Assembly: GCF_056746865.1 (NCBI RefSeq)
Contig: NZ_CM163382.1
DNA: 64,000 nucleotides
Strand: one strand, 5' to 3'
In this document: piece by piece, positions 6,561 to 6,599 of the stretch
Layout of the letters: the number at the start of each line of letters is the position of its first letter
Position numbering within the stretch: position 1 is the first letter of the stretch
Position numbers and translations under genes: made by a program
Notes under the pieces: generated by a model
Seen by the model: the letters and a program-made list of their open reading frames with translations, nothing else
Told to the model about the DNA's origin: nothing
Database searches by the model: none

Positions 6561-6599
6561 CATACTCAAATCTCCTGCAATGTGGGAGATTTGAGTATG
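6561..6599 (-). promoter_or_regulatory. 15-bp perfect inverted repeat (39-bp hairpin) covering the SD and start codon of the recombinase gene
   Basis: catactcaaatctcc (6561-6575) and ggagatttgagtatg (6585-6599) are exact reverse complements with a 9-nt spacer. Confidence 0.4.

Follow-up and report, generated by a model that had tools for sequence, protein, structure and literature searches.

A recurrent hairpin that pairs the Shine-Dalgarno sequence of a small tyrosine integrase gene: a candidate translational brake

Fold-back inhibition of IS10 and the read-through structure of IS50, known from the work of Kleckner and Reznikoff, reportedly depend on an mRNA structure that occludes the start region of the transposase gene. 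A structure of this kind protects the element from activation by outside transcription, and its 5′ arm is located upstream of the element's own start site, so that only read-through transcripts are silenced. RNA thermometers, such as those of the ROSE and fourU types, are short, mismatched stems that melt near 37–42 °C. In IS200, a stem-loop in the 5′ untranslated region of tnpA sequesters the Shine-Dalgarno (SD) sequence, inhibits binding of the 30S subunit and strongly represses translation (PMC4513863). In Pseudomonas putida, a structure in the leader of the tnp gene of ISPpu9 buries the ribosome-binding site, and weakening of this structure raised the expression of a reporter 26-fold; an antisense small RNA, Asr9, has been proposed to open the leader structure (PMC8450116).

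The hairpin described here is found at the 5′ end of the gene for a small tyrosine integrase, in a stretch of 64,000 nucleotides (the window) from the E. coli chromosome, beside the ypjA/ehaD autotransporter gene. The predicted occlusion of the start region by an mRNA structure is a feature shared with IS10 and IS50. As in IS200 of Salmonella and E. coli, an inverted repeat at the left end hides the SD of the element's sole recombination enzyme. However, IS200 encodes an HUH transposase and the present element a tyrosine integrase, with no sequence relationship between the two; the IS200 stem is also longer (nucleotides 69–138) and acts in concert with Hfq, an antisense small RNA and an upstream terminator; no counterpart of these three was detected in the present case. 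In contrast to ISPpu9, no antisense partner is known for the integrase leader, which is only ~55 nt long. RNA thermometers likewise pair the SD in a local hairpin, whereas the integrase stem is perfect over 15 bp. Sequestration of the SD is a principle already known from insertion sequences, and it is here extended, by analogy, to a small tyrosine integrase.

The hairpin and the integrase gene in the window

The hairpin spans 39 nt of the window (6561–6599, minus strand). A repeat search confirmed the claimed 15-bp perfect inverted repeat with a 9-nt loop: the two arms of 15 nt each, CATACTCAAATCTCC (6561–6575) and GGAGATTTGAGTATG (6585–6599), are 100% complementary and are separated by 9 nt. 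Read as RNA from the minus strand, the hairpin is CAUACUCAAAUCUCC-CACAUUGCA-GGAGAUUUGAGUAUG, with the 5′ arm at 6599–6585, the loop at 6584–6576 and the 3′ arm at 6575–6561. The original prediction placed a GGAG SD and the AUG inside the stem on the minus-strand mRNA; this strand reading is right, and both are located in the 3′ arm. The SD, as read from the sequence, opens this arm (GGAG, 6572–6575, minus strand) and is separated by an 8-nt spacer from the start codon, which closes it (ATG, 6561–6563, minus strand). The position of the SD is conserved across the integrase family. The start codon follows the RefSeq annotation of intact copies of the gene (WP_001305755.1), and the N-termini of integrase homologues align at MNTSPWNK, in agreement with the annotated start. 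The conserved leader immediately upstream of the hairpin, CGCTCATAAGGGACAAC (6600–6616, minus strand), has a unique match in the window.

The rarity attributed to perfect 15-bp palindromes is borne out by the statistics. Among perfect inverted repeats with loops of 3–20 nt, the hairpin is the longest in the 64-kb window, and the runner-up has arms of 11 bp. Analytically, 1.07e-3 (about 0.001) repeats with arms of 15 bp or more are expected per window, and perfect arms never exceeded 13 bp in first-order Markov simulations of the window (n = 30). When the leader was folded as RNA, the hairpin persisted in the minimum-energy structure predicted for a context of 181 nt, with a z-score of −4.1. 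The predicted stability of the 39-nt hairpin falls from −21.0 to −18.9 and −15.8 kcal/mol as the temperature rises from 37 to 42 and 50 °C, and the hairpin is predicted to be fully paired at all three temperatures. An RNA thermometer was rejected on these grounds, namely the perfect 15-bp stem, its stability at 42 °C and its complete pairing up to 50 °C.

Several other identities were considered for the hairpin. An intrinsic terminator was rejected, since the sense strand after the stem reads AACACGUC, with no U tract. The scan of the window gave no terminator call at the hairpin site, and a borderline antisense call was obtained only in L088, one of the other loci of the comparative set. Rfam 15 gave no match at 6561–6599 at E-values up to 1, and the only Rfam matches in the scan were the ALIL pseudoknot inside an insertion sequence (see below) and one chance-level match. 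No further copy of the hairpin arms, such as an invertible segment or a recombination partner would provide, was found in the window, where the best other match has three mismatches.

Intact copies of the hairpin-bearing gene encode a tyrosine-type recombinase of 200 residues; strains CFT073 and ATCC 25922 are among those with such a copy. The integrase aligns to the catalytic domains of XerD and XerA, and its residues 32–186 align with residues 151–301 of the 317 residues of XerA, with ~31 residues preceding the catalytic domain. As the XerA alignment starts only at residue 151, the integrase is, on this alignment, a catalytic domain only, from which the N-terminal core-binding domain is absent. 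It therefore shares the catalytic domain (PF00589) of the simple tyrosine recombinases (XerC, XerD and XerA, and those of the size of FimB and FimE), but is shorter than XerA and differs from Xer, Cre and lambda Int, which carry an N-terminal core-binding domain. The tyrosine-recombinase residues R50, K78, H147-x-x-R150, H173 and Y182 are conserved in the family alignment. PF00589 (Phage_integrase) is present on the precomputed Pfam record of every listed family member. When the two fragments of the gene were themselves scanned, their scores stayed under the Pfam cut-off for PF00589, and all named NCBIfam models scored far below their cut-offs against the integrase.

The original prediction overlooked an insertion that splits the recombinase gene in the window. 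The N-terminal fragment (approximately codons 1–122; 6197–6563, minus strand) and the C-terminal fragment (4648–4886, minus strand, including the stop codon at 4648–4650) are interrupted by an IS629-like element of the IS3 family, 1310 bp in length (4887–6196, plus strand), with a 3-bp target duplication, ATA (4884–4886 and 6197–6199). This element contains orfA (4941–5267, plus strand) and orfB (5264–6154, plus strand), as well as the Rfam match to the IS3-family ALIL frameshift pseudoknot (RF01497, 5222–5338). Among the 128 E. coli genomes with the integrase lineage of the window, an annotated IS3-family transposase splits the match in just 3. In this lineage, the catalytic histidine of the HxxR motif is replaced by an arginine (H147R; YSTRSMRR, compared with YSTHSMRR), and R147 is unique to the window lineage among the 67 family members checked (codon 147; locus L001, 7765–8367). 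Because the catalytic histidine is replaced, the integrase of this lineage may have been inactive even before the IS insertion. Given that the gene is split by the IS629-like element and also carries H147R, the hairpin in the window is therefore probably a well-preserved relic that regulates nothing now, and the integrase element is very likely non-functional in this genome.

Attachment site and extent of the mobile element

The attachment site was mapped from an occupied and an empty site. E. coli CFT073 and clone D i2 contain a 2169-bp insertion that consists of the HEC-08 defence gene and the integrase gene, and strain 8178 is without this insertion at the same place (L088, 4499–6701; L210, 4965–4988). 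The empty site, attB, is a 24-bp palindrome, GTCCGCTC-TGTGCCAG-ATGCGGAC, and the occupied site is bounded by attL (GTCCGCTCTGTGCCAGGAGCGGAC) and attR (GCAGTCCTGTGCCAGATGCGGAC). The crossover region, and with it the attP core, is located directly after the integrase stop codon, and the att core recurs in other loci. The two-gene element of HEC-08 and integrase is also found in another genomic context (L211, L212). In the window, an attR-like core, GCAGCCC-TGTGCCAG-AAACGGAC, is found at 4606–4627 (minus strand) with one mismatch to the consensus, and the search for an attL partner in the window gave only a degenerate site at 1667–1681. A second conserved hairpin, CAGGGCTGC aaca GCAGCCCTG (4620–4641, minus strand), directly follows the stop codon; it overlaps the element-side arm of the attachment site and has no U tract after it. 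Its equivalent in Pseudomonas is GCGACGGTC ... GCCGTCGC.

Alignment of the loci delimits a conserved module of ~700 bp with sharp boundaries, which begins ~55 nt ahead of the ATG and extends ~45 nt beyond the stop codon. Whole or fragmentary copies of this module occur in 967 of 5426 complete E. coli genomes. In the window, the left edge of the module is located at approximately 6616–6621 (minus strand), corresponding to BLAST boundaries at query positions 26–31. The empty-site comparison rejected the 700-bp module as a self-contained, IS-like transposon with terminal inverted repeats, and the mobile unit therefore includes the cargo. The hairpin was also rejected as a homology junction, because homology continues on both sides of it, crossing the hairpin and ending at the left edge of the module.

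Core sites of tyrosine recombinases are inverted repeats around a short spacer, and the palindrome might thus be a DNA recombination element, either a core site or an attC-like site folded as a single strand for the integrase; the inversion of its loop in one degenerate copy (L221, see below) would suit this reading. It is nevertheless extremely improbable. The crossover maps to the other end of the gene and to a different sequence, the 15-bp arms with their 9-nt spacer are unlike the 8-8-8 att core, homology between loci spans the hairpin from ~20 nt upstream through the whole ORF, and in all clades the hairpin is coupled to the SD. An attachment or core site was rejected as the identity of the hairpin, with the crossover just after the integrase stop codon and the arms unrelated. 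Integron attC sites carry R″/L″–L′/R′ boxes (RYYYAAC...GTTRRRY) and are found at the 3′ end of a cassette; an attC-like site was rejected as well, since there are no such boxes in the 39 nt and the hairpin is at the 5′ end of the integrase gene.

Module derivatives that have undergone internal deletion and measure up to ~240 bp were observed in L221 (2501–2740) and L220 (2501–2579). The L221 derivative still has the left end, with the hairpin and codons 1–11, joined to a C-terminal piece plus the att site. Its 9-nt loop is flipped on the sense strand (TGCAATGTG), and the palindrome is therefore dynamic at the DNA level too. In L220, only a 79-nt piece of the left end was matched, which is followed by the deletion junction of L221, with no att end in the stretch read, and the 3′ arm of the hairpin has decayed (GGAGGTATGAGTATG). 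A conserved stretch of ~60 nt, CGCTCnCnGCGGACCTTCArCT..GGTAACTT..CTTCGTGCC, is found in the window at 1667–1740 (minus strand), beside a degenerate att-like sequence, GTGCCTGGAGCGAAC; the same stretch is located directly upstream of a miniature derivative of the module in another E. coli genome (L220, ~2441–2500).

The start of the module upstream of the hairpin reads GTCCGCTyyTCGCTCATrAGGGAC (6600–6621, minus strand; also in L004–L008, L087 and L216–L219) and shares GTCCGCTC with the attB arm. This sequence looks like an inverted att-like site at the junction of the variable cargo and the integrase. The att-like module start is absent in Providencia (L213), in which 39 nt separate the end of a gpx gene from the integrase ATG. 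In the window, the left edge of the module is abutted by an inverted repeat that is perfect over 14 bp, GGCTGTGTGAAAAC ... GTTTTCACACAGCC, with its copies 127 nt apart (6619–6773). The same 14-mer occurs as inverted pairs 1.7–4.3 kb apart beside integrases in Rouxiella, Halomonas and Aestuariibacter (L017, L064 and L011, respectively). The unit bounded by the 14-bp repeats looks like a separate element, present here in a miniature 155-bp form, that inserted upstream of the integrase. In many draft assemblies and metagenomes, the contig ends ~25–300 nt from the integrase start (L007, L012, L031, L036, L061, L071, L094, L105, L107, L129 and L146), and several genomes hold two copies; the presence of a repeated, assembly-breaking sequence nearby is therefore suggested.

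Recurrence of the hairpin across the integrase family

The integrase belongs to a family of at least 7999 proteins (E ≤ 1e-10), with 571 integrase loci among the GTDB species representatives, in Gamma- and Betaproteobacteria. The comparative set consisted of 219 loci with 191 distinct leaders, and 178 distinct leaders were used for the fold counts. Strong-SD genes from the same loci served as controls (n = 436 for the folds and n = 427 for the anti-SD search). Minimum-energy folds were calculated for the region from −50 to +10 around the start, and those in which all four SD bases were paired upstream were counted. The SD is fully paired to an upstream arm in 115 of the 178 leaders (65%), compared with 64 of the 436 controls (15%), which corresponds to an odds ratio of 10.6. 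Of 178 leaders, 95 have an exact anti-SD tetramer at a distance of 3–20 nt on the 5′ side of the SD, versus 29 of 427 controls. When only the SD sets the register, the three stem positions that follow are Watson-Crick pairs in 81, 62 and 62% of cases, compared with 38, 31 and 28% in the controls, and all four pair types are used at these three positions. In 33 of the 55 protein clusters (80% identity), most members have the hairpin, and ~35% of the leaders are without a clear hairpin. Because related sequences are not independent, the kinship among the leaders inflates the p-values, and the variety of the arm sequences is the real evidence.

This variety is considerable, although in most clades the leader hairpin has a 3′ arm that starts with the SD. 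The arm pairs include GTCCTCC/GGAGGAC in Pseudomonas, GATCTCC/GGAGATC and GAACTCC/GGAGTTC in Betaproteobacteria, and ATGAGAGTC/GACTCTCAT in L068, in which the arms extend to the AUG. By clade, the 3′ arms are GGAGATTTGAG, GGAGGAC, GGAGTTC, GGAGATC and others, while the integrase is 60–92% identical, and the only constant part of the hairpin across the clades is the SD plus its complement. The hairpin follows the SD where the N-terminal length of the integrase varies, and a 15-bp stem extending to the AUG is specific to the enterobacterial clade. Conservation at homologous loci, which the original prediction had proposed as a check, takes the form of pairing: a hairpin that pairs the SD recurs, with arms that vary in sequence but stay complementary.

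Within the close clade, an ungapped alignment of eight members was analysed. In this alignment, 95.8% of the cells are paired, compared with 24–41% when the partner is slid by 1–3 columns. Double compensatory changes are found at two pairs (C-G to A-U and C-G to U-A; Providencia L213 and metagenome L206), and seven cells are G-U. In the module variants of E. coli, which have diverged by 7–9% over ~700 bp, the 39 nt are identical. RNAalifold returned no consensus structure for a MAFFT alignment of 18 diverse leaders, because MAFFT set the arms out of register, and the SD-anchored analysis and the ungapped close-clade alignment replaced this approach. The pairing probability of the SD discriminated poorly between the leaders and shuffled upstream sequences (0.87 vs 0.73), and stem-based measures and real controls were used instead.

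Quasi-palindromes can be perfected by template-switch mutation, and the stem could be a by-product of this process, or of chance, that hitch-hikes with the gene and has no function. A stem that is still perfect although the gene in the window is dead would fit such an origin. The chance expectation of ~0.001, the analogous stems with unrelated arm sequences in 33 of the 55 protein clusters and the decay of the stem in the degenerate copy L220 (two mismatches in the 3′ arm) make it highly improbable.

A DNA operator has also been weighed, that is, a duplex palindrome bound by a dimeric integrase or by a host factor that would repress transcription. The palindrome is perfect and is located at the 5′ end of the gene, and symmetric changes in two half-sites would mimic covariation. 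G-U and A-C mismatches in the stems number 36 and 27, respectively (p = 0.31); this excess is not significant, and covariation alone therefore cannot separate an RNA stem from a DNA palindrome. Other observations, however, make an operator very unlikely. The arms differ widely between clades that share the integrase at 60–92% identity, the hairpin tracks the SD as the N-terminus changes in length, and there is no conserved promoter to repress. The original prediction had offered a protein-binding operator for the recombinase as an alternative. This is not supported, and the arms of the integrase sites mapped from the occupied and empty pair (GTCCGCTC / GAGCGGAC) share nothing with those of the hairpin.

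A candidate brake on translation and its neighbourhood

The sequence comparisons make it probable that the hairpin is a cis-acting, RNA-level brake on integrase translation. In any transcript with both arms, the SD would be folded into the stem, along with the AUG in the case of the enterobacterial clade. The 30S subunits would then be excluded from the sequestered SD, and integrase synthesis would stay very low, whatever transcription enters from the surroundings. The translational control originally predicted is supported on the comparative side, by the pairing of the SD (65% vs 15%), the covarying arms and the compensatory changes; for the regulatory effect, we infer that the hairpin lowers translation and that its purpose is to limit the integrase and to insulate the gene from read-through. 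Insulation would be a sensible purpose, since the element is inserted in many contexts, with no promoter detectable in its short leader. These contexts include a lambdoid prophage, genomic islands, a plasmid, an integrative conjugative element and a position directly behind a gpx gene. The conserved leader of ~55 nt is too short for a promoter and contains no recognisable one, the scan of the window found no sigma-70-like promoter, and the promoter candidates that were seen, in L088 and L087, are context-specific only.

As modelled, a stem of −21 kcal/mol should almost abolish initiation, which would mean either that little integrase is needed or that the model misses a relief mechanism; some mechanism of relief may therefore exist. 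The most concrete candidate, weakly indicated by the leaders, would be transcription initiation within the hairpin, on the model of IS10 and IS50. In this variant of the brake, the element's own transcripts would start inside the hairpin, past the greater part of the 5′ arm, and be translated freely, and only outside transcripts would carry both arms and hence be silenced, a protection that would be useful for an element inserting in many contexts. A weak −10-like motif (CATACT, CATAAT, CATGCT), with 59% A at position 2 and 71% T at position 6, is found at a fixed distance upstream of the anti-SD and would put the start site at or near the anti-SD. However, the information content of this motif is low (0.5–0.8 bit) and is partly explained by the pairing of the AUG in the enteric clade. 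No conserved −35 was found in the leaders of the family, no promoter passes the consensus scan of the window, and the sole promoter-like site of L088 precedes the entire hairpin, with its end ~67 nt from the ATG. Such a filter against read-through is, on balance, unlikely.

Validated anti-phage genes adjoin the integrase in the loci examined, namely PD-T7-5 and DS-11 in the window and HEC-08 in CFT073. The PD-T7-5 homologue (1844–2866, plus strand; PADLOC E = 8e-102) and DS-11, a CBS-HEPN anti-phage protein (3197–4294, minus strand; NCBIfam NF053863, E = 2e-121), are encoded downstream of the integrase, between the attR-like site at 4606–4620 and the degenerate site at 1667–1681. On the other side, ORFs of 208 residues (6873–7499, plus strand) and 91 residues (7524–7799, plus strand) diverge from the integrase. 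Neither has a Pfam or PADLOC match, and the 208-residue ORF is also without an NCBIfam match; both may be cargo. An ORF of 1567 residues (8975–13678, minus strand) is annotated by RefSeq as the adhesin-like autotransporter YpjA/EhaD, and the window therefore lies in the ypjA island of E. coli.

A broader reading, unlikely on present evidence, is that the hairpin could gate translation in very widespread minimal integrative elements. These could consist of an integrase of 200 residues that lacks the core-binding domain, with attP immediately behind its stop codon and a palindrome of 24 bp as attB, and could carry one-gene anti-phage systems between chromosomes, prophages and plasmids. HEC-08 is the cargo of the only element whose ends were mapped, and PD-T7-5 and DS-11 adjoin the copy in the window. 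The gate could be opened by ribosomes arriving from an upstream gene, by an RNA partner or by phage infection, and such conditional opening would make the mobility of the defence cargo conditional.

No description of this integrase family was found in the literature searched, which does not prove that the family is undescribed. The hairpin itself represents a modest gain, in that the hiding of a ribosome-binding site would extend from insertion sequences to a small tyrosine integrase. The integrase family and the defence genes that adjoin it are a by-product of more interest than the hairpin. If the hairpin sets the mobility of the element, it would bear on the spread of single-gene defence systems.
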